From assembly GCA_020429915.1 (NCBI GenBank), contig JAGQKV010000018.1, forward strand, positions 133,770-197,769: 64,000 nucleotides of DNA, written 5' to 3'. The notes below the pieces were generated by a model that saw only the letters and a list, made by a program, of their open reading frames with translations, was not told the origin of the DNA and searched no databases. Position 1 is the first letter of the stretch, and each line of letters begins with the position of its first letter. This document shows positions 5,418-57,347 of this stretch, piece by piece. The position numbers and the translations under genes were made by a program. This DNA is from Candidatus Omnitrophota bacterium (GTDB taxonomy: Bacteria; Omnitrophota; Gorgyraeia; Zapsychrales; Zapsychraceae).

Positions 5418-6182
5418 TTGACAAAGATCGACTGGTTATCAATAATGAGGCGAATTCAATGGTTTCAGCCCCCGGACGGTCCGGCCCGTATGCATATCCT
5501 CATTCTCGTCATATCCCTTGTCCTCGGCTTTCTCACAGCCGGTCTGCTGGCAGGGATACCACCGGTCGTCCTGATCTCAGACATCTTCGGCACGGTGTTT
5601 GCACCGGATAAAAACTCCGGCGCCCTGGAAACCATCTCCGGCGCCAACTTTCTCCTTCCCTATTATTTCATGTTACTGTTTGCCCTGCTCGGTGTGGCCG
5701 GTGTCACCCTGTCGGGCAAAGTCTCCGCCTTTAATCGGCAGCGTCTGCGGTCACATATGGTTATTCAAACCGTCCTGGTCCTGTGCGTACTACTATTGTC
5801 GCAAACGCTCAGCCAGGCCCGCTATTTTGCAGAGGAACTGACCAAATTCACCGGAAAATCGCTGGACGAAAAGATGGCGTACAATTTCGCCAAGTCCTAC
5901 GGCTTTGCCCGCTACTGCCGGGAACATCTTCCCGGCCGGCACTACTGTGGCGTGATTTCGGATATTGACAAGCAGCCGCAGAAGAACCTGATCACCTACC
6001 TGGCCGTCCGCTACTACGTTTATCCGCTGGACATCGTCACACCGACCGATCCCTCCGAACAGGAATGCCAGATCGTTTTCTTAAAACAGCATCCGCGGGA
6101 AGCCGTCCCGCCGGGATACGTTATCAAGCCGCCGTTTGACAGCCGCAGCCTGATCGCGGTACGGGAGGATTCCGCGCCATGA
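5418..6182 (+). CDS. Hypothetical membrane protein, translationally coupled to the downstream membrane protein
   Basis: 254 aa with N-terminal TM helices (ILILVISLVLGFLTAGLLAGIPPVVLI; FLLPYYFMLLFALLGVAGVTL; VIQTVLVLCVLLL). Its stop overlaps the next ATG (ATGA at 6179-6182). The start is uncertain; in-frame Met candidates are at 5445 and 5490. Confidence 0.45.
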   Translation: MTKIDWLSIMRRIQWFQPPDGPARMHILILVISLVLGFLTAGLLAGIPPVVLISDIFGTVFAPDKNSGALETISGANFLLPYYFMLLFALLGVAGVTLSGKVSAFNRQRLRSHMVIQTVLVLCVLLLSQTLSQARYFAEELTKFTGKSLDEKMAYNFAKSYGFARYCREHLPGRHYCGVISDIDKQPQKNLITYLAVRYYVYPLDIVTPTDPSEQECQIVFLKQHPREAVPPGYVIKPPFDSRSLIAVREDSAP

Positions 6183-7579
6183 CCATTGTCAGACTCCTCA
6201 TTGCGCTGGGCTTTCCGGTTATCCTGGGACTGGCGTTGATGCGTCGTTTGCACGCGGACCGGTTGTTATCACTCGGCGCGCGCGTTCCCTGCGCGTTCGC
6301 CCTCGGGATGGGCATGGTGAGCCACTGGATGCTGCTGATGACCATAGCGGGCGTGGGCTATTCGGTGGTGAGCCTGCATCTGCCCCTGGCGGTTATCGCT
6401 GCCGCCTTGTGGCTTACGGCCGGTGGCAGCCATACGGACACGCCGGCGCCGAGGCAAGGCACCGCCGCCGGCGGTTGGCGCACGGCGGCATTGGTCGTGA
6501 TTTACGCCTTTATCGCATATATGACGGTGTTCATCGGCGTACGCGCGCTGATGGTCCCGATCATGGAGTGGGACGCGATATCCTGGATCGCGCTGAAGGC
6601 GAAAATCCTTTTTTATGAAAGCGGCGCGATCCCCATCGCCAAGCTTCCAAATTCCGCCTACCCGCTGCATGTGCCATTGAGCCTGGCGTGGATCGCCTTC
6701 CATCTCGGCGAGTGGAGCGAGACCCTGATCAAGGTCCTGTTTCCCACGTACTACCTCTTGTTCGCCCTTTTTCTGTACGCCACGGCGCGGCTATACGTCG
6801 ACCGTCTCTGGGCCGCCCTGTGCGCAGCCTTGTTCCTTTCGGTCCTCTTCGCTCCCTATCACGCGACCATCGCGTACCGCGATACGGTGATGATGAACTA
6901 TTTCTGCGGTGGCATGCTGGTGCTGGTTTACTGGCTGAAAAATACACGCCCGCCGTTGTTATGGATCACGGCGATCCTGTTAGGTCTCGGAAGCTTTGTC
7001 AAACTGGAAGGGGCTTTGTATATGGGACTGGGATTGATGCTCCTTGCCGCGGCGGTCTTGTTGTACGGTCCGCGGGAGCGCTTCGCCAAGATCCGCGCAA
7101 CCGGGATCAGCGCCGCCATTAGCGCGGGGATCTTTGCGATCTATTTCATCTATAAAAATCTGATTGGGGCAACCCACGCCACTCAGGACACCACGGTCCA
7201 CGCCGCCGGCGGGACAGGTTCCCGGCTGTGGGAAGTGCTGACGGCCGTCGGCCGGGAGCTTTTCTTAAGCGGTAATTGGCATATTTTGTGGGCGCTCTTC
7301 GCGCTGAGCATCTGGCTGCCGGTGGACCGGCAACGACAGGCGGCGCGTCTCGTTACCGCGGTCACCGTCATCGCGTTTATCACCGTGTATGTTGGCCTGG
7401 GGACGTTGACGGGCATCTACAAGTCGGTGCTTGGCCTGGGATCGTCCGGGGTCCTTCCCCGTATCTTCATACATGTGTATCCGTTGGCGGTGTTGAGCAT
7501 CTGCCTGGCGGCGGCTGAGCGGCCCGACAGCGTCGGAACCGGTCGTCCCCAGCAGGAGGGGAATGTCGGTGAGCGGTGA
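6179..7579 (+). CDS. Polytopic integral membrane protein (~12 TM), possibly GT-C-fold (ArnT/PMT-like) glycosyltransferase
   Basis: 466 aa, almost entirely hydrophobic helices with short loops. It pairs with the upstream membrane ORF. The family call rests on architecture only, with no motif match. Its last 315 nt overlap the 3' end of the giant minus-strand ORF (see findings). Confidence 0.4.
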   Translation: MTIVRLLIALGFPVILGLALMRRLHADRLLSLGARVPCAFALGMGMVSHWMLLMTIAGVGYSVVSLHLPLAVIAAALWLTAGGSHTDTPAPRQGTAAGGWRTAALVVIYAFIAYMTVFIGVRALMVPIMEWDAISWIALKAKILFYESGAIPIAKLPNSAYPLHVPLSLAWIAFHLGEWSETLIKVLFPTYYLLFALFLYATARLYVDRLWAALCAALFLSVLFAPYHATIAYRDTVMMNYFCGGMLVLVYWLKNTRPPLLWITAILLGLGSFVKLEGALYMGLGLMLLAAAVLLYGPRERFAKIRATGISAAISAGIFAIYFIYKNLIGATHATQDTTVHAAGGTGSRLWEVLTAVGRELFLSGNWHILWALFALSIWLPVDRQRQAARLVTAVTVIAFITVYVGLGTLTGIYKSVLGLGSSGVLPRIFIHVYPLAVLSICLAAAERPDSVGTGRPQQEGNVGER

Positions 7580-12987: not shown

Positions 12988-13030
12988 TGATTGGGGAATG
13001 GGTTGGTGTATTACTATGATTAATAGTATA
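12988..13030. promoter_or_regulatory. Upstream motif pair before P1: TGATTGGGGAAT (12988-12999) and ATGATTAATAGT (13016-13027)
   Basis: The same 12-mer TGATTGGGGAAT and a near-identical ATGATTAATA(T/G)T box recur upstream of paralog P2 at 29505-29516 and 29549-29560. Both are in the same orientation relative to the genes. This P1 intergenic region is noticeably AT-richer than its surroundings. Confidence 0.45.
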
Positions 13031-13125
13031 AGTCATTCAACCGCCGGAATCAACCGCGCGGAAGCGATCCGGACAGAACGTCATTACCTCTTTACTCGGA
13101 ACAATTTATGATGCGTAATCGGCCC

Positions 13126-29100: not shown

Positions 29101-29485
29101 TCAGAAAATATTTCGCCATCTTTTGAGCCTCGTGACGAATGCCCTCGCGGGAGATGCTGGCGTCTCCGCTTTCCATAATAAACTCGAAATGGAAAGGCTC
29201 GTCCGGATAGACCGTCATTCCCTTGACCAGAACCGGGTGATAAGCGGGACTCGGAGCGACTCGAACACCGGGCACGGGCAACCCCTCAGCTCCGGCACCG
29301 GGATCGGCACCATAGACCGGGGCCGGCAGCATCACGTTGCCGGTGATAAAGCAAACCATCAGGGCAACGGTAACGATCCGGCGAAAGATTCCATTCCTGG
29401 GTTGATGTTGTTCGATAAACATGGGACTCCCCGAATACGAAAAACGGCCGGCCATGCCGATCATGGCCAAACGGTATTCGCTCAA
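26102..29485 (-). CDS. Giant secreted/membrane protein P2 (1127 aa): signal peptide, domain X (paralog of the P1 N-domain), internal hydrophobic lipobox-like segment, HEAT/PBS-lyase-like repeats, C-terminal TM helix
   Basis: Signal peptide RRIVTVALMVCFITGNVMLPAPVYGA; the real start may be the in-frame Met at 29422 (MFIEQHQ...). Residues ~65-400 align with P1 residues ~45-350. An internal hydrophobic segment LRLILSGLIVLGVCTAC (28108-28159) parallels LAVVGLCSAC in P1. Then come HEAT-like repeats (YVQGRAAEGLLEFGDPRAIPFLIRRL...) and a C-terminal TM (WSLTAGGLLALLAFYGYIRR). Confidence 0.75.
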   Translation of the reverse strand: MSEYRLAMIGMAGRFSYSGSPMFIEQHQPRNGIFRRIVTVALMVCFITGNVMLPAPVYGADPGAGAEGLPVPGVRVAPSPAYHPVLVKGMTVYPDEPFHFEFIMESGDASISREGIRHEAQKMAKYFLTSLTVPQGDLWVNLSPYESERIIPPDLARTQMGRDLLKQDYLLKQLTASLMYPEQELGKTFWERIYNKARARYGTTDIPLETFNKVWILPDYARVYEDQSTVYIVQSRLKVMLDHDYQALRQADDFAARAHAPAELPLSAEIVRDLILPEIEREINEGENFAPLRQIYNALILAQWYKETLRDSFLGQAYVDLNKVRGIDDVDASMQGRIYDQYMAAYKIGVFNYIKEDRDLLSAHAIPRHYFSGGFTGTDITLGHSPDRAMFARNLTGDLYKVNLQVHPEWNSPYPSDQAILTQLGHILKVPFKGKFRSTSVPLRLILSGLIVLGVCTACERDQAGGQGKQDTTVIQLFEADRLEDLLIAIYRDSDNFGFPKGYEDQFLALGPRAMDRLIQELGNPQSAVFQDVAGNTVVPKSAYRLLTRFGEPAYNALLGLLESPDPYVQGRAAEGLLEFGDPRAIPFLIRRLMTADGRLNDGLSQALTRFQNEGVKAAIPIYARALRAADRRVVGNRGLYPDRSNHVVAIRDLQRIGDESAVPVLEERLRQLRIISEESIPYEVTNVISALTEIYLRLQAQSNSLLPAIRKYRDSEEWRMRLLAYRIAERLPDSVRAVYLSEVPESERIRRIRRDLDSAQPELRTHAARSVGALATVPAELVEDLLRIARTEDIFTPTSMPGSSAYLYTRDLNGPARIAALQQLHRLEVPEEALLPIYIDVLEKYWLHRAKIVGLNSLFLVTLEGMRRMGPEAAAAGPYLRDIIDVERLFGNSNLYEDYPAIADTLVSIGYTEGVMPIVERHFYSARSPNAVDYVSSLKVLAMDPVTLLDVRARVNASPQLTLRYNRNRDINAILYNETDREVLAAILKTRLLDAYDREDFLEVYADDLDLLAAVDPEYFDGLEWRIFKEKRWPVIRNWSLTAGGLLALLAFYGYIRRNRSQDNAQLSEVGGIDMNEIVIDRGGRLDGLSPSPGAGERAGVLINGLRPVIVELTPVSEALIFSGRE

Positions 29486-29504: not shown

Positions 29505-29560
29505 GTGATTGGGGAATCGCGTGCGGGAGTATCGCTGCGGTGCTACAAGATGATTAATAT
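29505..29560. promoter_or_regulatory. Upstream motif pair before P2: TGATTGGGGAAT (29505-29516) and ATGATTAATATT (29549-29560)
   Basis: Identical 12-mer and near-identical AT box to those upstream of P1 (12988-13027), in the same orientation relative to the gene. Spacing between the boxes differs (44 nt here, 28 nt at P1). Confidence 0.45.
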
Positions 29561-29634
29561 TAACACATTTTTCCTATTTCCGGCAAATTATTAAATTTTG
29601 GAAATAACCGCTGAAAACCGTGCTCTGTGGGGGT

Positions 29635-43536: not shown

Positions 43537-44904
43537 TTAACGGTCGGCGCTCTTCAGCAGCTCGTTTCGGTCGAAGCCAAGTTGCTCGACGGCCTCATTA
43601 GGGTTCTCGGAGTAATGGCGGCAGAATGTGGAGACCTCCACCATGGTCGTCATCCCCTGCTCATCGAGATGCTTCAGCAGGAATGACCTCAGTAGATGCT
43701 CCTTCATGATATCCTTGGCCGTCAGTCCGGATTGTTGCGCCAGCCGGTCACGAAACACGGTACTCGGATTCATCTGCACCATTTTCTTGGAATCGTAGTC
43801 GAACTTGTACACTTGAGACAGCAGGATCTTAACCTGCTCCATCCCGCTGGTTTCGCTGACTTCGTCGACGACGCGAAACAGCCGGTCCCCGATGTGGTAT
43901 CGTTTCAGCACCACAAACACATCAATCAGGTTGACGAGCATCTCGGGGATGTTCATCGGTTCGTTTTGCAGACGAATAATGGCCTCGCGCGAGGTCAACG
44001 CGTGGATCGTCCCCATACAGTACTTTCCGATGTTACAGGCGGTGATCATATCGGTGGCCTCTTCCCCGCGGACCTCCCCGACGATAATCCGTTCGGGACG
44101 CATGCGCAGGCTGTTTTTAACAAGATCAGCCAGACTGATTTCATCATCACTCTCCAGGCGGGAACAGCTGTCTTCCATGAACGTATTCAGCTCCAACGTA
44201 TCCTCAATAACGACAATCCGGTGACCGTTGGGAATAAAACTCAGCAAGGCGTTCAGGATGGTCGTTTTGCCGACACCGGGACCCCCGGCGATAATCATGT
44301 TGGCCGGCCGGATATTCATCCCTTCCAGATACAGCCAAAGCTGGGCGGCGACCTCATGGCTCATCGCGCCGGTATGAATCAGGTCCATAATGCTCAGGGG
44401 CGTCACCTTGGCCTTGGTGATGGTCAGCTGCGGGCCGAACGGGGACAGCGCAATATTGACCCGACCTTCCAGATTGGGCAACTCGATATTGACGATCTTG
44501 GTCAAATGCTTCTTGTTGCAAAACATCAACAGCTTGCGTATGAACAGGTCAATCTCTTTCTGACTGCCGAACTTCTTGCCCGTGGAAACAAACCCTTTTT
44601 GACCGTGGTGTATGTAAATCGGTTTGAGGTTATTGATGACGATATCTTCCACAAAGCCGTCGCACAGCATATCGGTCAGAATTCCGTAGGATAGAAAATC
44701 CTTGATGAACGCGATCCGCTCCTCCGCCCGTTGGAGCCTTTCCTTCATATTCGGGAACTCATTGGCGTCCAGGATCCCCTGCAGCTCCTTCTCCACCAAA
44801 GCTTCCTTCTCCTCGGCAGGCTGCAACAGATTGATTTGACCCTGCAATTTCTCAACAAGGCGATACTCAAGTTCGATTCGATTGTCCCTAAATTCCGCAA
44901 GCGA
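43537..44904 (-). CDS. Secretion-superfamily ATPase, CpaF/TadA/FlaI (VirB11-like) type
   Basis: Start MSLAEFRD at 44902-44904, 10 nt after the M16 gene. Walker A IAGGPGVGKTTILNAL, Asp box / Walker B RIIVGEVRGEEA, His box GTIHAL. The first ~50 aa of the ORF track entry are antisense read-through and are excluded. Confidence 0.8.
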   Translation of the reverse strand, partial: SLAEFRDNRIELEYRLVEKLQGQINLLQPAEEKEALVEKELQGILDANEFPNMKERLQRAEERIAFIKDFLSYGILTDMLCDGFVEDIVINNLKPIYIHHGQKGFVSTGKKFGSQKEIDLFIRKLLMFCNKKHLTKIVNIELPNLEGRVNIALSPFGPQLTITKAKVTPLSIMDLIHTGAMSHEVAAQLWLYLEGMNIRPANMIIAGGPGVGKTTILNALLSFIPNGHRIVVIEDTLELNTFMEDSCSRLESDDEISLADLVKNSLRMRPERIIVGEVRGEEATDMITACNIGKYCMGTIHALTSREAIIRLQNEPMNIPEMLVNLIDVFVVLKRYHIGDRLFRVVDEVSETSGMEQVKILLSQVYKFDYDSKKMVQMNPSTVFRDRLAQQSGLTAKDIMKEHLLRSFLLKHLDEQGMTTMVEVSTFCRHYSENPNEAVEQLGFDRNELLKSADR

Positions 44905-44914
44905 CATAACGCAT

Positions 44915-47512
44915 CTACTCCTTATCCTTGGCGGGCCGGACGAACACCGACACCATGTTGTCGAAATCCAGATATTGACGGGCCATGGCCTGCACATCTT
45001 CCTGGGTAACCGCATCCACGAATTCGTCGTACCGGGTGTGGTAGTCATAACCGAGACCATAAAGCTCGTTCAGATTACTGCGCGAATTCTGCTGGGATAC
45101 GGTTTGCAGGCTGGAGGCATTGTCTCCCTTCAGATAGTGCTTGATGTCTTCAAGTTCGCCTTCCGGGACCACTTCATCCTTCATCCGTTGCAACTCCTCG
45201 CGGACCAGCTTTTCCACGTCTTCGAGACTTTCCGCGTCCGTTATCACATAAAAATAGATGTACCCGGCATCCATCGTGGCCGAGACGTTTCCGCCCAGGG
45301 TATAGGCCTTTCCGTACACATTCCTGACCTTGGTAAAGAGACGGCCGCTGAACGACGATCCGAGGATAGAGGTCATCACATCGATTTTATAGTAATCGGG
45401 ATGCATGAAACCGACCGCTCGGAAACCGAACTGAACGATAGCCTGCTCCTTTTCCAAGTTCAGGTTGATCCGCTTTTCACCGGCCGGAGGGGCCAGCTCG
45501 GTCATCGCGGGCATATACTCGCCGCCTTCCATCTTGCCGAAGTCTTTCCGGATCTTTTCCGTCACGGCCTCGGCATCGATATCACCGAACACGCTGATGA
45601 CCATGTCGCGCGGGGTCAGGATCTTGCGGTAGAAGGCTGTGACATCGTCGCGGGTGATCCGCGGCAGGGACTCGGGAGTACCGGCGCCATCGAGACGGAT
45701 CGGATTTCGAGAAAATAAATTCTGTTTCAAATGAAAGTTCGATAACCGGAATATCTCCTTATCCCGCTGCTTGAGATGCACCAGCAGATTCTGCCGCTGC
45801 AGATCAATTTCCTTTTGCGGGAAAGTGGGATTGAAAGTCACGTCGCGCAACAAGTCGAGACACAGATCCCAGTCGCGGCTCAGGCAGTCGACATAGACTC
45901 CGTTACTGGTCCGCCCGGAGCTGCCGCTCAGGCTGATTCCGCGAGAATCTTTCAGTTCCGCCAGGGCCTGCGCGGAACGGGATTTTGTCTCCTTGGCCCA
46001 CGCCGTGGCCATGATATTGGACAGACCGGAAAGTTCTTCCGGCTCTTCATTCACGCCGCCGCGAATATTCATCCGGACCGTCACGACCTCAAACTGCGGA
46101 TTCTCCAGCGTGAGCAAGGTGATACCGTTGGGCAACACTTCCCGATGGATTTGCTGCAATACGGCATCGGATTGGGTGGCGGATTTCTCCGGCCGGCTGG
46201 AATTGGGCCGCAGGATGCAAATGGATTCGGTTTGCGGCTTGAGGTATTCATTAGCCACCCGCTTGATATCGGCGGTGGTGACATCCTCAATACCCTTGAC
46301 ATAATTCGCCGTGAAGGCCGGATCTCCCGTGAAGGCCTCGTCGTAGGCCATGAACCAAGCGACCCGTTGCGTGGTCTGGTTGCCGAAAATGAAATCGCTG
46401 AGCACCTGGGTCTGGGCCTTCGCCAATTCGTCCGCGGTAATTCCCTTGGCCTTGATGCGCGCGATGTGGTCGCGAATCCCTTCTATGACCTCTTCCACGT
46501 TGTCTTCGTCTTCCAATGTGGCGGTAATATCGAAGACCCCCTTGTCCACCGGGGTATAGTTGCCGGCGCTGATCCATGAGACCAGGGTCCGATCCTTGAA
46601 CAGATCTTTGTACAACCGTGAACTTTCACCTTCACCAAGCACTTGGGCCAAGACGTCCAGCGCGTATACATCGTGGTTCAGCATGCGTACCGACGGGTAC
46701 GCGACGGTCAAACGGGTGACGTCCGTCTCGAAGTACTCCTCAACACGCCGGGGCGCGACCTGGTCGGGTTCCTGCGGCAGATTGCGGACCAAATACGGTT
46801 TACGCGGATAATCTTTCAGCTTCTCTTCTATCATCGGCATGATTTCTTCAGCCTTGACGTTTCCGGCAATCGCCAGGACCATATTGTTAATGAAGTAGCG
46901 GGACTTGTAATATTCCCACATCTCATCGCGGGAAATCTGCGCCAGCAGGTCTTTGTAACCGATGATCGGATGATAATACGGATGAACGGTAAACATGGTC
47001 TCATAAACCATGCGGGTGAGTCTGCGTTGGGGCCGGTCATTGATCAGCCTCATTTCATTGAAGACGACTTCACGTTCCTTGGCCACTTCCTCCGGATCAA
47101 GAACAGAGTTCAGGACCATATCCGTAACCACATCAAGACCGGTCTCGAACTCCGTATAGGGAACATTGATCGTATAGATCGTAAAGTCCATGCTGGTCGA
47201 GGCGTTGAGACTGCCGCCCACGGCCTGGATTTCCGCGGGAATCTGCCCGACGCCGCGCTTCTCCGTCCCCTTAAAAAGCATATGCTCCAGGAAATGCGAT
47301 AACCCGGTGCCCAGAAACTTATCTTCGGTAGCCGAACCCGCCTTGACCAGCACATAGACCGAGACCATGGGATTGTTCGGCATCTCCTGGATGACGACGG
47401 TCAAGCCGTTGCTTTTCAGGACGCGTTTGGTAATGTGGGGCTCATAGGCATCGCCGACGCGGGGAACACATAACAGGATCAGCACAGCGGCGGCGGAAAG
47501 AAATTTCTTCAT
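44915..47512 (-). CDS. Secreted tandem M16 (pitrilysin/insulinase) family zinc peptidase
   Basis: 865 aa; signal peptide MKKFLSAAAVLILLCVPRVGDA; inverted zincin motif HFLEH...E in the first M16 unit; a second, inactive-looking M16 unit follows in the same polypeptide. Confidence 0.85.
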   Translation of the reverse strand: MKKFLSAAAVLILLCVPRVGDAYEPHITKRVLKSNGLTVVIQEMPNNPMVSVYVLVKAGSATEDKFLGTGLSHFLEHMLFKGTEKRGVGQIPAEIQAVGGSLNASTSMDFTIYTINVPYTEFETGLDVVTDMVLNSVLDPEEVAKEREVVFNEMRLINDRPQRRLTRMVYETMFTVHPYYHPIIGYKDLLAQISRDEMWEYYKSRYFINNMVLAIAGNVKAEEIMPMIEEKLKDYPRKPYLVRNLPQEPDQVAPRRVEEYFETDVTRLTVAYPSVRMLNHDVYALDVLAQVLGEGESSRLYKDLFKDRTLVSWISAGNYTPVDKGVFDITATLEDEDNVEEVIEGIRDHIARIKAKGITADELAKAQTQVLSDFIFGNQTTQRVAWFMAYDEAFTGDPAFTANYVKGIEDVTTADIKRVANEYLKPQTESICILRPNSSRPEKSATQSDAVLQQIHREVLPNGITLLTLENPQFEVVTVRMNIRGGVNEEPEELSGLSNIMATAWAKETKSRSAQALAELKDSRGISLSGSSGRTSNGVYVDCLSRDWDLCLDLLRDVTFNPTFPQKEIDLQRQNLLVHLKQRDKEIFRLSNFHLKQNLFSRNPIRLDGAGTPESLPRITRDDVTAFYRKILTPRDMVISVFGDIDAEAVTEKIRKDFGKMEGGEYMPAMTELAPPAGEKRINLNLEKEQAIVQFGFRAVGFMHPDYYKIDVMTSILGSSFSGRLFTKVRNVYGKAYTLGGNVSATMDAGYIYFYVITDAESLEDVEKLVREELQRMKDEVVPEGELEDIKHYLKGDNASSLQTVSQQNSRSNLNELYGLGYDYHTRYDEFVDAVTQEDVQAMARQYLDFDNMVSVFVRPAKDKE

Positions 47513-48538: not shown

Positions 48539-50044
48539 CTAAGGGTTATAGGCGGGCGAAACGGGGGCGTTGGTGCTCAAGGCCGTCCGTGCGGTATTTT
48601 CACCTGTAATAATGGTCGGGGTGAGAAATATGGCGATCTCATTCTGCGTTTCTTCGGTTTCTTCACTGCCGAACGTTCGGCCGATGACCGGGATATCACC
48701 CAAATACGGGATCTGTTTTTTGGTGTGAATAGTATCTTCTTTGATAAGTCCGCCGATGACAATCGTGACTCCGTCTTTAACCGTAACGGTAGTCTCGGCC
48801 TCCGTCGTCTCTACGACCGGAATGACATTGTTATTGCTCGTTATGAGCGACCGGGTTACAGAACTCACTTCCGGTTTGATCTGCAGAGTCACATAGTCAT
48901 CTTTATGGATCGTCGGCGTCACCAACAATTTCACGCCGACTTCGATAAACTCTACCGACTCCGATGAAGTCGTCGGTCCGGCCGAGGGCGTGGTCGTTGT
49001 GGTGGTCACGTACGGTTCGGTTGAACCCACTAAAATTTTGGCCTCCCGGTTATTAAGAGCTACGATGCTCGGGCTGGACAGAATTCGGGTATCACCGATC
49101 GTTTCCAGGGCCTCGACGGTTGCCTCGTATTCGTCACTGGAGAGCGTACCGATGCGCAGCCGGCCGCTCTTATCGTTGCTTTTGATCACGTCAAAATCGC
49201 CACTGACGGTAAGATCATGTAAATCCTGCACCAAGCCTGTCCAATCCACACCGAGTTTGAATTCATCTCCCAGATTGACCTGCACGATCTTGGCCTCGAC
49301 CAGGACCTCCCGGTCCTTTTTATCGAAGGCGGCAATAATACGCCCGGCTTCGGCGATTTTGGCCGGCATGTCGGAAACAACCAGGGTATTTGATCTCGTA
49401 TCCTTGCGGATGGTTCCAAACTCTGGAGTCAGCACCTGACTTATTTCGCTGAGAATTTTGTCGGCATCGGCATAAGCGAGCTCGAAAACTTCGGTGGCAG
49501 GCGGCTTATCAACCCCCCTGATAATCTCCTCCATTGATGCCACCGCGTCAGGGGTGTCCATTAAAATAAGACTGCGGGAACTTTCGGACGGCATGATCTT
49601 GCCTGATTCGGTTTTGACCTTCTCCAGGATCTTAACCAACTCGTCCAGGTTCATAAACTCGACCGACCGAACCTTTAATACGGTTTCGGGTCCGTACGGG
49701 TAGCCGAACTTATTGGCAAACTCCTGTTTGGTCATAACCTTAACGACGTCTTCCTCCGTGGCGTATGCCCACCCGTTGGTGTCGACAATCATGCTTAAGG
49801 CCTGCATGGCGTCGACGTCTGTGAGATAAATATTCACTTCGCCTTGCACTTCCCTGCTGGCAATAATATTGCGGCCGCTTTTCTTGGAGAGTAATTTCAG
49901 GACGTCGTGGACGCCCAAACTGCGGATGTCGAGAATTTCGATATGGCTTGGAGAAACAGGTTGACCGGATGCAGGTGCGCCCCAGACGGATCCGGCACCA
50001 CATAAACCGTTCACAATGGCAATCGTCGCAAGAAATTTCTTCAT
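48539..50044 (-). CDS. Secretin (GspD/PilQ family outer-membrane channel)
   Basis: ~500 aa with a signal peptide, N-domains and the C-terminal secretin domain (VLVEAKIVQVNLGDEFKLGVDW...; TRILSSPSIVALNNREAKILVGSTEPY...; IPYLGDIPVIGRTF). There is a Thr-rich linker. Confidence 0.85.
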   Translation of the reverse strand: MKKFLATIAIVNGLCGAGSVWGAPASGQPVSPSHIEILDIRSLGVHDVLKLLSKKSGRNIIASREVQGEVNIYLTDVDAMQALSMIVDTNGWAYATEEDVVKVMTKQEFANKFGYPYGPETVLKVRSVEFMNLDELVKILEKVKTESGKIMPSESSRSLILMDTPDAVASMEEIIRGVDKPPATEVFELAYADADKILSEISQVLTPEFGTIRKDTRSNTLVVSDMPAKIAEAGRIIAAFDKKDREVLVEAKIVQVNLGDEFKLGVDWTGLVQDLHDLTVSGDFDVIKSNDKSGRLRIGTLSSDEYEATVEALETIGDTRILSSPSIVALNNREAKILVGSTEPYVTTTTTTPSAGPTTSSESVEFIEVGVKLLVTPTIHKDDYVTLQIKPEVSSVTRSLITSNNNVIPVVETTEAETTVTVKDGVTIVIGGLIKEDTIHTKKQIPYLGDIPVIGRTFGSEETEETQNEIAIFLTPTIITGENTARTALSTNAPVSPAYNP

Positions 50045-50049
50045 GAAAA

Positions 50050-50694
50050 TCACCGGGTCAGTTCCGTGATCCGTCCGCCGCTTTCGAAAATGACCTTCTC
50101 CGGACGTATTTCCTTCACCATGATCCCGTCAATATGTTCACCCACGTGGACCGTGTATGTTTGTTTGCTGCGCCGGTCTTCCAGCACAGCGTTGGAATCA
50201 GCACCGATCATCAGACCGAGAATCCGGAAACGGTCATGGACTACGACAGGCGGTTGCGTGACACGCACGGGTGGAGTCGAAAGCCGTAATGGGAAATCCG
50301 GCACTACTTGCTCCGGCAATACAGATTCATAAGCCGGCACGCGGCTGTTTTCTTTCCGGGCCGGGGCCTCGACTGTTCGGGTGACCTTCGGTACCGGCAT
50401 GACCGCCGCCATTTCCGGCACAGGATTCGCTTCCTCCGTAGGCGCCGGAGGAGATCTGTAGGCAGATTTTTGCATATTGTAAACCAGCGTCGGCCCCGCA
50501 GCCAATGCAATGCCGAGCAATACCAGCATCATCCATGCCACAGGCCAGGATTTCTGAACCGCCGCTGCGGATTTGACCGTGAATTCCTTCACGGTTACCG
50601 GTTCTGCCACACTGCCGTGCGCATCCAAGTAGGAACGATCGCTGTTGCGGATCAGATTTAACAAGCGCTCTTCAGAAGTTTCGGCTGATAGCAT
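50050..50694 (-). CDS. GspB/ExeB-like (or GspC-like) bitopic secretion-system protein
   Basis: 214 aa: a cytoplasmic N-terminus, one TM (WMMLVLLGIALAAGPTLVY), a Pro-rich linker and a C-terminal beta domain (RILGLMIGADSNAVLEDRRSKQTYTVHVGEHIDGIMVKEIRPEKVIFESGGRITEL). It overlaps the ExeA-like gene. Confidence 0.55.
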   Translation of the reverse strand: MLSAETSEERLLNLIRNSDRSYLDAHGSVAEPVTVKEFTVKSAAAVQKSWPVAWMMLVLLGIALAAGPTLVYNMQKSAYRSPPAPTEEANPVPEMAAVMPVPKVTRTVEAPARKENSRVPAYESVLPEQVVPDFPLRLSTPPVRVTQPPVVVHDRFRILGLMIGADSNAVLEDRRSKQTYTVHVGEHIDGIMVKEIRPEKVIFESGGRITELTR

Positions 50695-51538
50695 GCTGTC
50701 CCCAAATTTTATCCTGATCGATGATCCTGTTAATCAATGTACTGGAGACGCCTTCACACCGGTTTGTCAGGACATACTCCATCACCCGGTGACACACACG
50801 GGCGATCTGCCGCGGGTAACCCTTGGTATGGCGATGAATGCGTCGCACAGCGGAGCGGTCAAACAGTTCGTGAGATGCCTGATAGCCGGCCTGCTTCAAG
50901 CGAAAGTGAATAAGCGCGCCTGTTTCGAATTCATTCAAAGGTTCGAGCAGGCAGGTGTCAACGATCCGGTCGACAAAATTCGGCATCTTGCGGACGACCG
51001 GCAGGATCTCCAATTGCGAAAGAATGACCACTTGCAACATCTTGTACTCGTTAGTCTCATAATTCAGCAGTACCCGCAGGATTTCCAACTGGCCGGCCGT
51101 GAGCTTCTGTCCTTCATCAATAATTAATATGACCGTCTTTTGTTCGTCGACAGCCTTGCGGTAAAGATAGTGAACGATTGCTTCTTTGGCTTCCTGCAGA
51201 CTGGCAAACGGGACCGACATGTTGAACAGCCGCGCCAAATAGGCGATGAATTCGCCATCGTCGGCAAATTGCGGATCAAGAATCACATGAAATATGTAAT
51301 CCCGTTCCCGGTGAAAAGAGGTCACCAGCGAACGCCACAATGTGGTTTTGCCGGTCCCGATATCTCCCAGGAGCAAGGTCAGCCCCCGCCTCAGGCGAAT
51401 GTTGATTTCCAGACGGATCTTGGCACTTAGATGGCCCGGGGAATGATAAAAAAAAGCGGGATCCGGACTTGTGGAAAACGGTTCCTTGGTCAGTTCGAGT
51501 GGGGTATAAATGTTCATTTGGGCAATGATTCCGGTCAA
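50672..51538 (-). CDS. ExeA/GspA-like AAA ATPase
   Basis: TTG start at 51538 (the ATG alternative at 51517 gives MNIYTPLEL...). N-terminal LTKEPFSTSPDP...FYHS is characteristic of ExeA; Walker A GDIGTGKTTL; Walker B VILIIDEGQ. There is no periplasmic peptidoglycan-binding extension. Confidence 0.7.
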   Translation of the reverse strand: MTGIIAQMNIYTPLELTKEPFSTSPDPAFFYHSPGHLSAKIRLEINIRLRRGLTLLLGDIGTGKTTLWRSLVTSFHRERDYIFHVILDPQFADDGEFIAYLARLFNMSVPFASLQEAKEAIVHYLYRKAVDEQKTVILIIDEGQKLTAGQLEILRVLLNYETNEYKMLQVVILSQLEILPVVRKMPNFVDRIVDTCLLEPLNEFETGALIHFRLKQAGYQASHELFDRSAVRRIHRHTKGYPRQIARVCHRVMEYVLTNRCEGVSSTLINRIIDQDKIWGQHAISRNF

Positions 51539-51627
51539 TACCGACTTGTTATTTTATTTTTATATAGCGACCGGACAGTGTCAAGACAATACCGCAATAT
51601 CTGCGATCTATCTCGGTCGAAATTTGA

Positions 51628-52089
51628 TCACAAACGAAGTTCCACCGTGCGCTGACCGTCACTGAGAAGCACCCGCTCGGGTGAGATCTCGGTAACGGCA
51701 AATCCTTCGACCTGTCCGTTGAGAACAACCTCTTCTCCGTTGATGACCGCCACAGCATTGTCCGGATTAACCATTACCGCGTTTAAGCGGAGTTCGGGCA
51801 AGGGCTTCGGCTGCGGCTCCGGAACGGGACGTCGCCGCACGACCACATCCACCGGCTGCCGAAAGGGATCTCGCCCCCATCCTCCGGACGAGTCGAGTTG
51901 CGGAGCACTGCCTTGAAGCTGTTGATAGCGGGCCATAAGATCCCGCACTCCGGTATGCTGCGCAGAAGCCTTCTTCTTGCGATCCGTACGACCGGGGGCC
52001 GTACCTGTAGAAAAATTTTGAGACCATACGTATACCGCGACAAGTATCAATACGGGAAAAATAGCCTTTAAAAGAGTCTGTCTATTCAT
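51628..52089 (-). CDS. PilP/GspC-like pilot/assembly lipoprotein-type protein
   Basis: 153 aa: N-terminal TM/signal, a Pro-rich spacer and a C-terminal beta-domain (LRLNAVMVNPDNAVAVINGEEVVLNGQVEGFAVTEISPERVLLSDGQRTVELRL), the classic PilP fold pattern. Confidence 0.55.
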   Translation of the reverse strand: MNRQTLLKAIFPVLILVAVYVWSQNFSTGTAPGRTDRKKKASAQHTGVRDLMARYQQLQGSAPQLDSSGGWGRDPFRQPVDVVVRRRPVPEPQPKPLPELRLNAVMVNPDNAVAVINGEEVVLNGQVEGFAVTEISPERVLLSDGQRTVELRL

Positions 52090-52603
52090 TCGTTTCTGTC
52101 TCTGTATAAATATGCAGAGTCACACGCGCGTTGATGGAGTTTCGTTCTTGCGGTGTCGCCGACATGCGAATTTCCTCCACGCTGATGAGGGCGCGCGGAT
52201 ACGTTTGAATCGCACCCAGGAATTCACCGGCGGCCGGAAAATCGGCGGTAAACGTCAGGACGACCGGTTTTCGTGCGTATCCCTGCGCGCGCAACGCTCC
52301 TTGGAAATCCACCGCCGACAACGCAATTTCGTTACGGACAGCCATTGCCGAGAGATCATCGACAACGGAGGATAAGGCCGAAGCCGGCAGCAGGGCGGCG
52401 ATGTGCTCCTTCAGTTTGCCATCGGCCGCGGCGGCCTTCAGGCCGGCGGTATCTGCCCGCAGCCCATGCGTTTTTTCCCGCAGTACCGTTGTCTCACGGA
52501 CGGCATTCGTCGCCATGGTCCCCAGCAACAGACAGCCGGCCATCCCGACAGCCAAGAGACCCGTCCACATGGTTTTGCCGGATGTGACGGGCGTTTGGTT
52601 CAT
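52082..52603 (-). CDS. PilO/GspM-like inner-membrane assembly protein
   Basis: 173 aa: one N-terminal TM, a coiled segment, then a ferredoxin-like C-domain; position and size are typical. Confidence 0.55.
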   Translation of the reverse strand: MNQTPVTSGKTMWTGLLAVGMAGCLLLGTMATNAVRETTVLREKTHGLRADTAGLKAAAADGKLKEHIAALLPASALSSVVDDLSAMAVRNEIALSAVDFQGALRAQGYARKPVVLTFTADFPAAGEFLGAIQTYPRALISVEEIRMSATPQERNSINARVTLHIYTETETNE

Positions 52604-54192
52604 CTTCGCGTTATCCTCCAGGGAATCTCGCAGGCGATCCGAAATTCCGTTCGTTTGTCCTCACCACGCAACCGGCGCACCTGCAAAAGCTGTGACTTGG
52701 AACAGGCCTCGCCTTCAAGCGCTGACATAAATCCTGACACTCCGGACTCACCGTCCGCTTCACCGACGACCGCCCCTTTTATGTACAGCATATTATCCTC
52801 AGTCCACATCTCGGAAAAATAAATATCCGCGGGAACGATACGGCTGATGACCTGCAGGGCCGTCCGCCAGTCCCGGCGATCCTGCGCGATCGACGCCAGC
52901 TCTACCGACATCCGCACTTCGTCGACACGCGGCTGCAGGGCGTCATATTGTCGGCGCGCCTCTTCCCACTGATTTTGTCCCCGTATGCGTTCACTCTGGG
53001 CCCAACCGTATGTCAGCGAAACGGCGGCCGCGACCGCCAGCAACACGGCATAACCGACCCGCGAAGGTCCCGGCGCGGCGGAAACGGTGGACTGTCGGCT
53101 CAGCCAATTGATCTCATCCGGCGGATGGCAAGCGGCTCCGGTCGCCTGATCAAAATCAAGGCCAAATCCGGAGTACTCGCTTGTCACGGCAGGCAGGACG
53201 GCCAGACTATTGGCCGCGACCGCTGTTGCGACGTTCAAATCCAACTGTTCCCCGAGATAATCGACTAATCCTTTGATGTGCGCTCCCGGCCCGGAGAGGA
53301 TAACGTGCCGGACCGGATACCCGGACTTTTGGGCATAAAAGTTGACCGAACGGCGGATCTCGTTGACCAGCTTTTCCAACTGCGGACGGATCAGCATATA
53401 GATCTGTTTGCCGGATATTTTTCCGTCCAGGATCTGGTCGCTATCGCGTTCGGCAATCCCGTACGCTCGCTTGAATGTTTCCGCTTCACTCAGTGAGAGC
53501 TCAATCTTGCCTTCCGGTGACACCAGGGCCTTGGTCATACTGATGGTGATATCCTTTCCGGCCAATGGTAAACGCCGGAACAATTCCAGTCCGCACTCCC
53601 GAAGAAATACCATACTGATCATATGGTCATCCATGTGCACAACCGCCACGTGTTCTGCTGCTGCCACAAGCTGATGTCGGAAGAGCTGAGTAACGGCAAG
53701 CGGTGCAGGGATGATCTTGGCCAACCGGATATTCCGGAGTTCTCGGTCAACGTTGACCAACCGGAAGGCTGAACGGATACGATCGATGGCGTCACGCGAC
53801 ACGGCCGCGGTCAGAAGGCTGAATTTCTCGCCTGTCCCTCCGCGTAGCGTCTCCGTTCGGAAATAATCGATCGCCGCCCGCTCCGATGGAAAGGTAAGGT
53901 TTTCACCGATCTCCCAACGGATCGCCTCCGCTAACTCCCGGCGCGGCATTTTTGGCGTCACGATCTTGCCGAGGTACATATCCGGCAAATTGACGGCGCA
54001 AATTACTTCCGCCCGTTTCGCGGTTATCGTGCGCAAAACCTGTCGCAGGCCTTTGGCGAGGCCCTCCGGACTAAAATCCGTCACCGGCGCTGTCGCGGCG
54101 TTCGTGATCACGCAACCGTTTTTGTCCCGCACCCCTTCCACTAACCGGAGGACATGCGGCGCGATACTCAGACCGATAACGTGTTTGGACAT
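52600..54192 (-). CDS. PilM-PilN fusion (actin-like ATPase-fold PilM N-domain, TM, PilN-like periplasmic domain; GspL-like architecture)
   Basis: Start MSKHVIGLSI at 54190-54192. The first ~350 aa have the PilM/FtsA-like pattern (VIGLSIAPHVLRLVEG...; HVILSGPGAHIKGLVDYLGEQL). A TM (VGYAVLLAVAAAVSLTYGW) and a PilN-like C-terminus follow. Confidence 0.7.
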   Translation of the reverse strand: MSKHVIGLSIAPHVLRLVEGVRDKNGCVITNAATAPVTDFSPEGLAKGLRQVLRTITAKRAEVICAVNLPDMYLGKIVTPKMPRRELAEAIRWEIGENLTFPSERAAIDYFRTETLRGGTGEKFSLLTAAVSRDAIDRIRSAFRLVNVDRELRNIRLAKIIPAPLAVTQLFRHQLVAAAEHVAVVHMDDHMISMVFLRECGLELFRRLPLAGKDITISMTKALVSPEGKIELSLSEAETFKRAYGIAERDSDQILDGKISGKQIYMLIRPQLEKLVNEIRRSVNFYAQKSGYPVRHVILSGPGAHIKGLVDYLGEQLDLNVATAVAANSLAVLPAVTSEYSGFGLDFDQATGAACHPPDEINWLSRQSTVSAAPGPSRVGYAVLLAVAAAVSLTYGWAQSERIRGQNQWEEARRQYDALQPRVDEVRMSVELASIAQDRRDWRTALQVISRIVPADIYFSEMWTEDNMLYIKGAVVGEADGESGVSGFMSALEGEACSKSQLLQVRRLRGEDKRTEFRIACEIPWRITRR

Positions 54193-54203
54193 GCAATCAC
54201 CTT

Positions 54204-54674
54204 TTATAATTCGCGCCACGTCGCGGGCACGGGATCCACTATATTGGGAGTTCCCAAGGTTAGCGTGACCACCTGCTGGACCGTTCTGTTTAACAGGCCG
54301 ACCTCACCGCGTGCGGTGATCACAACCTGACTGCCCGAACTCTCCACCCACAGAGTGTAAGTCCCGTCCGCGAGTGTTTCTTCCTGCGGATCGGTCACGC
54401 CCGGACCGGAGACCGCGGGATAAGCGGCGGTCCGCCATGATCCATCGGTGGATCCGTCGGGCGCGGCATGGATGAGGTACCACACCGCCCGGTTCACGCC
54501 GGCCTCGGCCAGGTACAGGGCCTGTTCAGAAGCATACCTGTCGCTGTTCCACCGCGTTTGCCAACGGACCATGACCAGGTACGTAGACAGAATCACTGTC
54601 AACCCTACGAGTATGATGACCGTGACCACCAACACGGCTCCTCGTTGCCGTCGGAGAGCGTCGCGCCTCATCAT
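54204..54674 (-). CDS. Minor pseudopilin, GspK/PilX-like (short)
   Basis: 156 aa; N-terminal QRGAVLVVTVIILVGLTVILS hydrophobic segment without the Glu5 typical of GspK-type pseudopilins; unusually short for GspK. Confidence 0.5.
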   Translation of the reverse strand: MMRRDALRRQRGAVLVVTVIILVGLTVILSTYLVMVRWQTRWNSDRYASEQALYLAEAGVNRAVWYLIHAAPDGSTDGSWRTAAYPAVSGPGVTDPQEETLADGTYTLWVESSGSQVVITARGEVGLLNRTVQQVVTLTLGTPNIVDPVPATWREL

Positions 54675-55195
54675 AAATTCCTCGGCCGGACTGCCGAACG
54701 CAACCGTAATGCGCGCTCGTCCACCAAGATCGACCAGTCCAGACTCACGACCGGTCCGTTCATACTAAACGGCAGTTCGCCCGGCGCTGCCACTCCGCGC
54801 ACCAGGACAGCCCCCGAACCGTAATTCGTATCCGCGACCGCCAGGCGTACTTCATATTCGCTCTGGGTGAAAGGCGGATTGGGGTCAGGGTCCAAGGGAT
54901 GATAAAGATACAAGCGGTACGTATTATCGCCGTCGCCGAGATCAGCGGTAAACGTCATGCCCCCTGCCGTCAATGCATCAATACTCTTGGCCTGTCGCAG
55001 CATCCGTGCCGCAGTATCCAAGGCCTGCGTGAGGTCCGCCCGCGCGGCGGCGATCTCCCGGTATGACGCAATCGCGTTGGTCCCGAAAAGATAAGCTGAT
55101 GTAGCCAATCCGCCCAGTATCGCCAGCACGGCAAGACTGACCATCAGTTCCACGAGCGTGAGCCCCCGCGGTGAAGAAAAACGCCTACCCGTCAT
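54671..55195 (-). CDS. Pseudopilin with prepilin-type N-terminal cleavage/methylation motif (GspJ/GspH-like)
   Basis: PRGLTLVELMVSLAVLAILGG: G|LTLVE, the class III signal peptide. Confidence 0.65.
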   Translation of the reverse strand: MTGRRFSSPRGLTLVELMVSLAVLAILGGLATSAYLFGTNAIASYREIAAARADLTQALDTAARMLRQAKSIDALTAGGMTFTADLGDGDNTYRLYLYHPLDPDPNPPFTQSEYEVRLAVADTNYGSGAVLVRGVAAPGELPFSMNGPVVSLDWSILVDERALRLRSAVRPRNL

Positions 55196-55203
55196 GCCCT
55201 CCC

Positions 55204-55590
55204 CTAAAATCCGTAGTCCGCCATTAACGTGGTCAAGGCAAGAGCCATTTCATCCCCTTTTTCATCCCAATACACGTTGACCACCACCTGTTTGGGATCG
55301 GCGACGACTGTCACTTCACGTTCAAATATGGGAAATCCACCGCCCACCGGCGCACGTACCCCGGCATAAGAATCGATGTCGCCGTAACTCGCGGCGGCCT
55401 TGATCTGCTCCATGCGTTCACGGGCAAGTTGCAATGCGATACCCCTGTTCTCGATAGAGGTATCGGCATTAATTGCCAAACTGAATAAATGAAAAATGAC
55501 CACGACGCCGATGACGAACAAGGTCATGGTCAGAATGGATTCAAGAAGGGTAAATCCGTTTTCGCGGGAACTGACAGTTACCGGTTTCAA
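55204..55590 (-). CDS. Pseudopilin GspI-like
   Basis: NGFTLLESILTMTLFVIGVVV prepilin motif; 128 aa. Confidence 0.65.
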   Translation of the reverse strand: MKPVTVSSRENGFTLLESILTMTLFVIGVVVIFHLFSLAINADTSIENRGIALQLARERMEQIKAAASYGDIDSYAGVRAPVGGGFPIFEREVTVVADPKQVVVNVYWDEKGDEMALALTTLMADYGF

Positions 55591-55598
55591 GACACAAC

Positions 55599-56063
55599 CT
55601 AAACTCCGAAATTACCGGATCCGTTGGTCACAAAAATATCATCGGTCTCGGTGTCGTCGACATCGATGTCTCCGGTAGAATCCTGGATTCTGAGAATATT
55701 GGACACTCCGTCGGGGCCATAACTATAGATAATATAAAAGTGCCCGTCGTCCGACAAAATGTATTGATATTCGGCTTCGTTGTCCGGATTAAAGGGGTCA
55801 TACAAGATCGAACTCACGATCTGGGGCGAGGCATCCAACAAGTAATCTTCCACGAGACTGGTCGCAGTATCCGGATATGCAGGCGGATTTTGGTTGGAAC
55901 GATAAGATTCCACAGCCACCTGCAGCGTCTTAAGTTCGCTTTGGGCCTTGGTGATATTTGCCTCGTCCTGCATACCTTTAAAGCGCGGAATCGCTATCCC
56001 GACCAGGATAGCAATCACGACCATGACAACCATTAACTCGATGAGGGTAAATCCCTTTTTCAA
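55599..56063 (-). CDS. Major pseudopilin / pilin GspG-like
   Basis: MKKGFTLIELMVVMVVIAILVGIAIPRF...ANITKAQSELKTLQVAVESY, the textbook GspG/T4 pilin N-terminus. Confidence 0.8.
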   Translation of the reverse strand: MKKGFTLIELMVVMVVIAILVGIAIPRFKGMQDEANITKAQSELKTLQVAVESYRSNQNPPAYPDTATSLVEDYLLDASPQIVSSILYDPFNPDNEAEYQYILSDDGHFYIIYSYGPDGVSNILRIQDSTGDIDVDDTETDDIFVTNGSGNFGV

Positions 56064-56098
56064 ATTCGACTCCTTTCCTTTGTCACATACGAGCCTAC

Positions 56099-57337
56099 TT
56101 ATCTTTGGATCGTCTTAACCATATCGAAAAGCGGCAATATCATCGATGCCATAATCAGTCCGGTGACACCACCCATGATCACGATCAAGACAGGTTCGAT
56201 AAGGAGCAACAGGCGTTTAATCGCGTGATCAATGCCTGCATCGTAAAAATCGGCAATCTTGTCCAGCATTGCCCCCAACTTGCCGGTCTCTTCACCGACA
56301 GCGATCATGTGCCGCACATCTTCGGGTATGCCTTTATGCCGTGCGAAGGCCGTCGCCAGCATTTCGCCTTTCTCGATCGACCGCCGTGCGTCTCGGATCA
56401 TCGCTGCCATGACGGTGTTGCCGGTGGCGTCGTGCGTAATGGTAAGTGATTCCAACATGGATACCCCGCTTTGCAACAAGGTGGCCAATGAACGGCAAAA
56501 GCGCGCCAACATGATTTTATTCGCAAGATCACCGACAACCGGAAGGCGCAACTGAATTCGGCTGACATGCGCCCGCCCTACTCCGGTGCGCACGTAACCT
56601 TTAAGGAACATTATAACGCCAATCAATATGATTCCAAACAGATACCAGTATTTATTTATGGCCGTTCCCAGCTGGTAAAGCAGCTGGGTAGGCAACGGGA
56701 GCGGGACTCCGGATTCGGTAAAAATAGCAATAAACTTCGGAATGATAAAGATTATCATCACTGAGAATATGATCGCGGCCGCACACAACAGGATCATCGG
56801 ATAAAACGTTGCGTTCTTGATCTTTTGCCGGATATCCTCCTGATTCTCCAGGTAAACCGCGTAGCGATGGAGTACCAACTTCAAATTTCCGCTCACTTCA
56901 CCGCTTTTAATGATACTGATAAACAGCGCAGAAAAGATTCCGGGAAGGCAGGCCAAGGCGTCCGAAAACGAGGAGCCGCCCGATACGGCCCGGCGCACAC
57001 CCTCCAGGGCCTTCGCCAGACGAGGATTGGCGGTCTGACGGACCGAAATATCCAGACAACGCAGTAACGGTATTCCTGCGTCGATCATATTTGACAATCG
57101 GACGGTAAACATGATCATCTGAACTGCGCTGACAGGACGATATCGGTCCAAATCAAACAAACTGCCTCCGCGCCTGCCGTCGTCCGCGGATTCGTTGTCA
57201 GCTACCGGTGTAATGTGTGTCGGCATGCATCCGGCATTGCGCAATTTGCGGGCCAACTCGTCCGCACTGGCGGCAGCCATTTCCCCGTGGATCAGCCTTC
57301 CGTTTTCTTCCCGCGCCTTATAGAGGTATTTGGGCAT
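56099..57337 (-). CDS. Type II secretion / type IV pilus platform protein GspF/PilC
   Basis: Start MPKYLYKARE at 57337. Two T2SSF repeats with TM segments (FYPMILLCAAAIIFSVMIIFIIPKF...; IEPVLIVIMGGVTGLIMASMILPLF). The upstream 84 codons of the ORF track entry are antisense of gspE. Confidence 0.8.
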   Translation of the reverse strand: MPKYLYKAREENGRLIHGEMAAASADELARKLRNAGCMPTHITPVADNESADDGRRGGSLFDLDRYRPVSAVQMIMFTVRLSNMIDAGIPLLRCLDISVRQTANPRLAKALEGVRRAVSGGSSFSDALACLPGIFSALFISIIKSGEVSGNLKLVLHRYAVYLENQEDIRQKIKNATFYPMILLCAAAIIFSVMIIFIIPKFIAIFTESGVPLPLPTQLLYQLGTAINKYWYLFGIILIGVIMFLKGYVRTGVGRAHVSRIQLRLPVVGDLANKIMLARFCRSLATLLQSGVSMLESLTITHDATGNTVMAAMIRDARRSIEKGEMLATAFARHKGIPEDVRHMIAVGEETGKLGAMLDKIADFYDAGIDHAIKRLLLLIEPVLIVIMGGVTGLIMASMILPLFDMVKTIQR

Positions 57338-57347
57338 CGTCGTGAAA

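Follow-up and report, generated by a model that had tools for sequence, protein, structure and literature searches.

A 12-nucleotide element of fixed orientation in the predicted leaders of giant genes of Candidatus Omnitrophota

Two giant paralogs and their upstream regions

The window, by which we mean the whole 64-kb stretch of DNA analysed here, carries two giant paralogous genes on its minus strand, P1 and P2 (Table 1). We placed the start of P2 at the ATG at position 29422, which aligns with residue 1 of P1 and is preceded by a GGGGAG ribosome-binding site. The likeness between the two proteins is confined to an N-terminal region of about 350 aa (termed here the N-domain; 50% identity over 353 aa, E = 3e-113) and a short C-terminal block, GGID(L/M)N...PVI(I/V), and their middles differ. 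The N-domain corresponds to no Pfam or NCBIfam model, and its AlphaFold model (pLDDT 64) gave no PDB match at E <= 0.001. Its homologs number more than 1150, with named sources that are nearly all Candidatus Omnitrophota; by sequence, the domain is specific to Omnitrophota, and P1 and P2 are members of a large phylum-specific family. A scan of species-representative genomes for the N-domain yielded 547 confirmed matches, and 79 loci (0.50 Mb) were kept.

Family members follow a common plan, with a signal-peptide-like start, the N-domain, variable enzyme-like modules (receiver domain, HEAT repeats, UDPGP plus phosphoglucomutase, CofD, HpcH aldolase) and a C-terminal GGIDLN...G(F)xPVIINITP block. 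At L002, L016, L018, L023, L039 and L053 the C-terminal block of another family member lies just 5' of the gene, which indicates tandem arrays of family genes. The last ~100 aa of P1, past its C-terminal block, are of low complexity, and positions 7265-7579 overlap a convergent ORF (6179-7579) by 315 nt; the true stop of P1 may lie earlier, or there may be a frameshift. A 98% identical fragment (P0001) is uninformative for the motif described below, as its contig has just 18 nt 5' of the called gene. Elsewhere, the window holds housekeeping genes, signalling proteins and, upstream of P2, a radical-SAM enzyme. A type II secretion or type IV pilus-like cluster (43537-45060 and 48539-58967), comprising a secretin, PilM, PilO, pseudopilins, and GspF-like and GspE-like ATPases, adjoins two-component genes, in agreement with a report of secretion loci close to giant Omnitrophota genes (bioRxiv 10.1101/2023.11.21.568195).

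Table 1. Genes, motif copies, predicted promoters and hairpin discussed in the text (window coordinates where given)
Feature	Position	Strand	Description
P1, 1886 aa	7265..12925	-	signal-peptide-like N-terminus; N-domain of ~350 aa; receiver domain at residues 591-665; C-terminal GGIDLN...PVIINISP block
P2, 1106 aa	26102..29422	-	same N-domain; HEAT repeats; same C-terminal block
Leader motif ATTCCCCAATCA, P1	12988..12999	-	starts 74 nt before ATG; ~+19 to +30 from predicted start site
Leader motif ATTCCCCAATCA, P2	29506..29517	-	starts 95 nt before ATG; ~+34 to +45 from predicted start site
Box 2, P1	13016..13025	-	gene sense TATTAATCAT; begins at last base of -10 hexamer and spans predicted start site
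Box 2, P2	29550..29559	-	gene sense TATTAATCAT; overlaps -10 by two bases and spans predicted start site
Predicted promoter, P1	13025..13053	-	TTGATT (13053..13048), 17-nt spacer, TATACT (13030..13025)
Predicted promoter, P2 (weaker)	29558..29586	-	TTGCCG (29586..29581), 17-nt spacer, TTAATA (29563..29558); read by eye, below tool threshold
Terminator-like hairpin, P2 leader	29438..29470	-	9-bp stem with 5 G-C pairs, then U-run
Predicted promoter, L014			TTGACT-17-TATACT
Predicted promoter, L016			TTGACG-17-TATACT
Predicted promoter, L020			TTGACG-17-TAGTAT
Predicted promoter, L022			TTGACA-17-TATACT
Predicted promoter, L103			TTGACA-17-TATACT

As the initial annotation of this DNA had reported, one exact 12-mer, TGATTGGGGAAT, which in gene sense reads ATTCCCCAATCA, lies 5' of both paralogs; it occurs nowhere else in the window, and no third copy was found there when one mismatch was allowed. 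Around the 12-mer, the match between P1 and P2 widens to 14 of 15 bases (ATRTGATTGGGGAAT). The second box (ATGATTAATA, box 2), earlier described as differing at one position, is an identical 10-mer at the two genes and shows that single mismatch when stretched to 13 nt. The sites given earlier for P2 are real, and their coordinates, off by one, are corrected in Table 1. In gene sense, TATTAATCAT is followed after 16 nt (P1) or 32 nt (P2) by ATTCCCCAATCA, the two boxes being colinear and equally oriented 5' of both genes, just as the annotation had it, and its description of the leader as AT-rich agrees with the GC of 0.45 in both intergenic regions, against 0.55 for the window. Little else is common to the two upstream regions: gapped alignment revealed no similarity past ~15 nt. 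A GC-rich direct repeat, (T/A)(A/T)CGCTTCCG(T/C)GCG in gene sense, flanks the promoter and leader of P1 (12947-12960 and 13055-13068), and at P2 a similar GATACTCCCGCACGCGA (29517-29533) abuts the motif, on the opposite side relative to the P1 repeat.

Markov simulation of the two upstream regions put the probability of a 12-mer in common at 0.004 and that of a 10-mer in common at 0.056. Comparison of the window's 200-nt upstream regions in all 406 pairings found a 12-mer in common in two pairs, one of them an unrelated pair. Evidence from the window is thus suggestive, not strong, and it would fit a sequence of no function that arose by chance, as a duplication remnant or through gene conversion between the 5' ends of the paralogs; the case for the 12-mer is strong because independent data from other genomes were added.

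Recurrence in other Omnitrophota genomes

We searched for the gene-sense motif on both strands of the 79 homologous loci. The exact 12-mer is present 5' of the homologous ORF, and on its strand, at L014 (JBFWOS01) and at L016 and L020 (both JAUIER01), and L022 (JAGOSC01) carries ATTCCCCAATCT upstream, an 11/12 match. Four of the 79 loci, from three MAGs, therefore have the motif 5' of the gene. The fifth case outside the window is a metagenome contig, L103, whose downstream ORF opens with the N-terminal signal sequence of the family (hmmsearch E = 2e-6) and whose leader resembles that of L022, the two forming an ortholog-like pair with ~40 nt conserved around the motif. With P1 and P2, the known instances number seven, which is ~7% of the sampled family loci. 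Of the five exact copies of the 11-mer ATTCCCCAATC in the 79 loci (both strands), four lie at most 350 nt 5' of a homologous ORF on the sense strand, a zone that makes up ~2.8% of the search space (binomial p ~3e-6, for a motif fixed beforehand from independent data). The sole other exact 11-mer, at L069, is on the opposite strand and far downstream (~0.56 Mb searched on both strands, ~1 Mb in all). Unbiased 8-mer enrichment in the upstream regions of the family recovered ATTCCCCA, TCCCCAAT and CCCCAATC, and an nhmmer profile built from the seven sites found no diverged further copies in the 79 loci.

The genes that carry the motif are 47-57% identical in the N-domain, save for L014 and L016 at 72%, and are scattered over a star-like NJ tree, which rules out a single orthologous clade of carriers. 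The DNA flanking the motif cannot be aligned across carriers, whose genomes range from below 40% to 55% GC. Eleven invariant bases before proteins that are ~50% identical, set between unalignable flanks, mean that the motif itself is under selection; neutral shared ancestry cannot account for them. The presence of the motif in only a minority of family members would suit a sequence of no function; against this stands its exact recurrence in at least three other genomes, always sense, upstream and after a promoter, and we consider a lack of function very unlikely. Even less probable is an origin as a piece of a dispersed repeat or the end of a mobile element, a possibility that the initial annotation had raised: a transposase-like ORF does lie 5' of the motif in L103, but the window holds only two copies in 64 kb, no flanking inverted repeats accompany the unalignable flanks, and all exact copies in the 79 loci except that in L069 are 5' of family genes. 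Across the window and the 79 loci (~0.56 Mb), the motif is not such a repeat. By these comparisons, the 12-mer is a genuine shared, lineage-specific cis-element, as had been proposed for the two paralogs, and a new one; we found nothing on the motif in the literature.

A metagenome-wide scan for a promoter followed by the motif returned at least 120 matches. Among the matches listed, 81 are inside long ORFs, and the rest either form a heterogeneous mix or come repeatedly from the same unrelated populations; L103 is the only family instance among them, and they say little on a wider regulon. Among the chance matches, two recurrent, well-conserved promoter-plus-leader sequences containing ATTCCCCAATC came from other organisms (soil, GC 0.46-0.67), one group comprising L093, L096, L097, L101, L114, L116 and L133 and the other L095, L123, L129, L136, L144 and L168. 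Within the N-domain, codons for RIIPQ read ATTCCCCA(A/G)(G/T)C in L010 (3382), L036 (3382) and L064 (2332), in the same sense and one mismatch away from the motif. We rejected the motif as a relic of coding sequence (the IIPQ codons), since the flanks do not match and the resemblance is probably a coincidence.

Predicted promoters and the leaders downstream

Promoters were identified as matches to a sigma-70-like consensus, and start sites were predicted from them. Such a promoter lies 25-40 nt 5' of the motif in all seven instances and is the best match each time (Table 1); that of P2 can alternatively be read as TAATAT with a preceding TGT and a spacer of 18 nt. Among words enriched 5' of the family genes as a whole, TATACTT and TATGTTAT, jointly an extended -10 of the form TGtTATACTTT, stand far ahead of all others; of 78 upstream regions, 17 contain TATACTTT, where 0.5 would be expected. 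The promoter consensus of the family resembles TTGACn-17-(TG)tTATACTTT and gives a usable -10 consensus for Omnitrophota.

The gap between the -10 and the motif falls into two classes, of 25-26 nt in P1, L020 and L022 and of 36-40 nt in P2, L014, L016 and L103, so that in the predicted transcript the motif starts at ~+19 or at ~+31 to +34; the ATG lies 74 to 337 nt beyond the motif. With a promoter 25-40 nt to its 5' side in each case, the motif would occupy the transcribed leader (~+19 to +45) and not the promoter, and the earlier "promoter region" should be replaced by "early transcribed leader". The two spacing classes and the variable distance to the ATG both argue against rigid contact with an initiating polymerase. 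Nor is there, on either side of the motif, a conserved block at a constant distance of 15-20 nt, or a conserved -10-like element 3' of it. A role as a sigma-70 core element was rejected, the hexamers lying 25-40 nt upstream and the motif having no partner at promoter spacing.

The initial annotation had offered an alternative-sigma promoter as one explanation, in which the motif would be a -35 or -10, and a conserved upstream motif common to paralogs with AT-rich leaders is what such a promoter would present. This explanation did not survive the comparison across genomes: a canonical -35/17/-10 promoter precedes the motif in seven of seven cases, the motif is the one invariant block, and the second, semi-conserved block, CTTTAG, is 9-24 nt off at a variable distance, and the distance to the ATG is equally inconstant. 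Nor does the motif resemble sigma-54, sigma-28 or ECF consensus sequences, and by eye none of the IHF, sigma-54 and sigma-28 consensus sequences fitted it. An alternative-sigma promoter is accordingly an extremely improbable account of the motif. Box 2 had been regarded as a second shared element. In both window promoters it coincides with the -10 and start-site region, and the other genomes lack it. We regard it not as an independent element but as the -10-proximal stretch of two promoters that resemble each other.

A semi-conserved (A)CTTTAG(TT) follows the motif by 9-24 nt in P1, L016, L020, L022 and L103, and all seven leaders are rich in C and poor in G over the 60 nt around the motif. 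A small hairpin stands directly 5' of the motif in L014, L016, L020 and L103. Of six predicted leader folds, four leave the motif unpaired. In that of P2, the motif and the ribosome-binding site pair with each other across a terminator-like hairpin, which is situated between the motif and the Shine-Dalgarno GGGGAG, 25 nt before the ATG, and may be an attenuator particular to P2. As a common feature of the leaders a terminator was rejected, being clear in P2 only and weak in L022 and L103. Other candidates failed similarly: pairing with GGGGAGU, which would make the motif an anti-Shine-Dalgarno, is seen in P2 only; pairing with the start of the coding region is weak in P1 and absent in P2; and three-frame translations of six leaders contain no in-frame start codon before the motif, as an upstream small ORF or leader peptide would need. 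Complementarity to GGGGAAU regions of 16S rRNA was set aside, these segments presumably being base-paired within the ribosome.

L014 and L016 have 335-nt leaders, each with a second, gene-proximal promoter-like site, and a hairpin (GAUUUC-UCGACG-GAAAUC at ~2718-2735 of L014, GUUCUC-GAC-GAGAAC at ~2750-2765 of L016) in which two pair changes are compensatory; the upstream unit of these leaders could be a separate small RNA. We found no common RNA structure around the motif. Rfam 15 returned nothing at gathering score, and permissive scans of both window leaders and four related loci stayed at chance level (E > 1).

Candidate readings of a strand-specific element

The motif is non-palindromic and lies on the sense strand in seven of seven instances, conserved across genomes and always 3' of a consensus promoter. 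We tentatively favor, among the possible explanations, a strand-specific leader element that is recognised in single-stranded form once transcription has begun and controls progression into the long genes, because its sense-only orientation, lack of dyad symmetry, variable spacing and single-stranded, C-rich context all point this way. Transcription would begin at the housekeeping (sigma-70-type) promoter 25-40 nt 5', which would put the motif close to the transcript's 5' end. A conserved trans-acting factor would read it there, on the nascent RNA or, in the early elongation complex, on the non-template strand, and this factor would set how much transcription or translation proceeds into the long gene. 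P1 and P2 would thereby come under common control, the motif marking a subset of family genes. We infer here the actual start sites, the recognition of a single strand, and the existence and nature of the factor. Since the motif is invariant, it offers no covariation or wobble pattern by which to tell RNA from DNA recognition, and a protein on duplex DNA at +19 to +45 would give the same anatomy.

A duplex-DNA operator just 3' of the start, at which a DNA-binding protein would act as a roadblock repressor of promoter escape or elongation and so co-regulate the paralogs, is for this reason a serious rival to the leader reading, if in our judgement a doubtful one. The transcription-factor operator of the initial annotation is viable only in this form, as a site 3' of the start point, and its placement in the promoter region is given up. 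Downstream operators are found at positions such as +19 to +45, and 11 invariant bases would suit recognition by a protein; there is also a second CCAATC exactly 10 bp downstream in P1 and a nearby CCAA(T/G/C) in several other leaders. Against an operator, the motif is asymmetric and strictly strand-specific, with symmetry only in the ATT and AAT flanks of ATTCCCCAATCA; the promoter spacing classes differ by ~12-14 nt, which is not a whole helical turn; the distance of the second half-site is not conserved (9, 10, 17 or 25 nt, or no half-site at all); and no gene for an HTH-type regulator adjoins any instance. The orphan response regulators of the window, earlier named as candidate regulators, have receiver or kinase domains only and no DNA-binding domain in Pfam.

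The operator gains weight from a second element of the same gene family. A 12-bp palindrome, GAAAnCGTTTTC, of the form GAAA(A/G/C)CGTTTTC(C), has 26 matches in 31.6 kb of upstream sequence against 14 in 466 kb elsewhere, and occurs in ~25 of 81 other family members (within 400 nt upstream in L010, L011, L029-L031, L037, L038, L040, L041, L048, L049, L057, L062, L066, L071, L076 and others). By eye, many copies are placed ~15-30 nt after the -10, a location similar to that of the leader motif, and others ~45-60 nt before it. The palindrome is clearly of DNA type and has the look of an operator through which a dimeric regulator would control this gene family, and its position after the -10 implies that the family does use operator-like sites there. 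In the leaders of P1 and P2 themselves, PWM scores for GAAAnCGTTTTC are at background.

Several known systems resemble the favored post-initiation reading. The ops element (JUMPStart), which is read by the NusG paralog RfaH, serves long enterobacterial operons for secreted or surface products. Ops is likewise short (8-12 nt), asymmetric and orientation-dependent, lies in the leader past a housekeeping promoter with no fixed spacing to the start codon, and is identical across unrelated long operons and species. The Omnitrophota motif, too, is a short, asymmetric leader element conserved across loci, and its carrier genes encode at least 1106 aa. Unlike ops (GGCGGTAGnnTG), however, it has an unrelated sequence and no evident pause consensus, neither the window nor the loci yielded a NusG paralog, most motif-carrying genes have a normal Shine-Dalgarno, and only a subset of the family has the motif. 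In a more specific version of the favored reading, which we think unlikely, the exposed ATT-CCCC-AAT (on the non-template strand or the nascent RNA) would be an ops-like loading site that recruits a specialised elongation or antitermination factor, and this factor would carry transcription through the C-rich, Rho-prone leader and the very long genes; if true, this would be a phylum-specific way to express giant multi-domain proteins in Omnitrophota. In its working, ops/RfaH would be the closest analogue of the motif, with the cold box and boxA as further ones.

The cold box of cspA-family 5' UTRs, thought to be read after initiation, is likewise ~11 nt long, near the 5' end of long leaders and common to paralogs, but its sequence and gene family are different, and the Omnitrophota motif has no cold-shock link. 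BoxA, the 12-nt site of Nus-factor antitermination in the leaders of rRNA and long operons, similarly lies just past promoters and is read on RNA. The semi-conserved (A)CTTTAG(TT) of the Omnitrophota leaders is vaguely boxA-like, whereas the motif itself does not match the boxA consensus (TGCTCTTTAACAA) and precedes protein-coding genes of one family only. For the operator, the parallels are the downstream sites of cre/CcpA and PurR, which also lie past the start point, bind protein and control elongation into the gene; those sites are palindromic and function in either orientation, whereas the motif is asymmetric and fixed to one strand. On the plus strand, TGATTGGGGAAT has an ATTGG core and resembles the Y-box or inverted CCAAT CTGATTGGCCAA of cold-shock-domain proteins, a lead only and a resemblance that may be coincidental.

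Among the window ORFs scanned, representing 64 kb of the genome, none has a Pfam match to an HTH DNA-binding or a NusG/KOW domain, and our literature search found no report on NusG in Omnitrophota.

Omnitrophota are uncultured and ultra-small bacteria that probably live as predators or parasites. They are noted for very long genes, and to our knowledge almost nothing is known of their gene regulation. The motif supplies a phylum-specific cis-element that can be scanned for in the complete Omnitrophota genomes that now exist, along with a working promoter consensus, TTGACn-17-TGtTATACTTT, and a second, palindromic element of the same family; together, these make it possible to define a regulon and to search for the regulator by phylogenetic profiling. 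Should the element prove an ordinary operator, it would be a routine regulatory site; if instead its role is to recruit an elongation factor, it would matter to how giant genes can be expressed at all.
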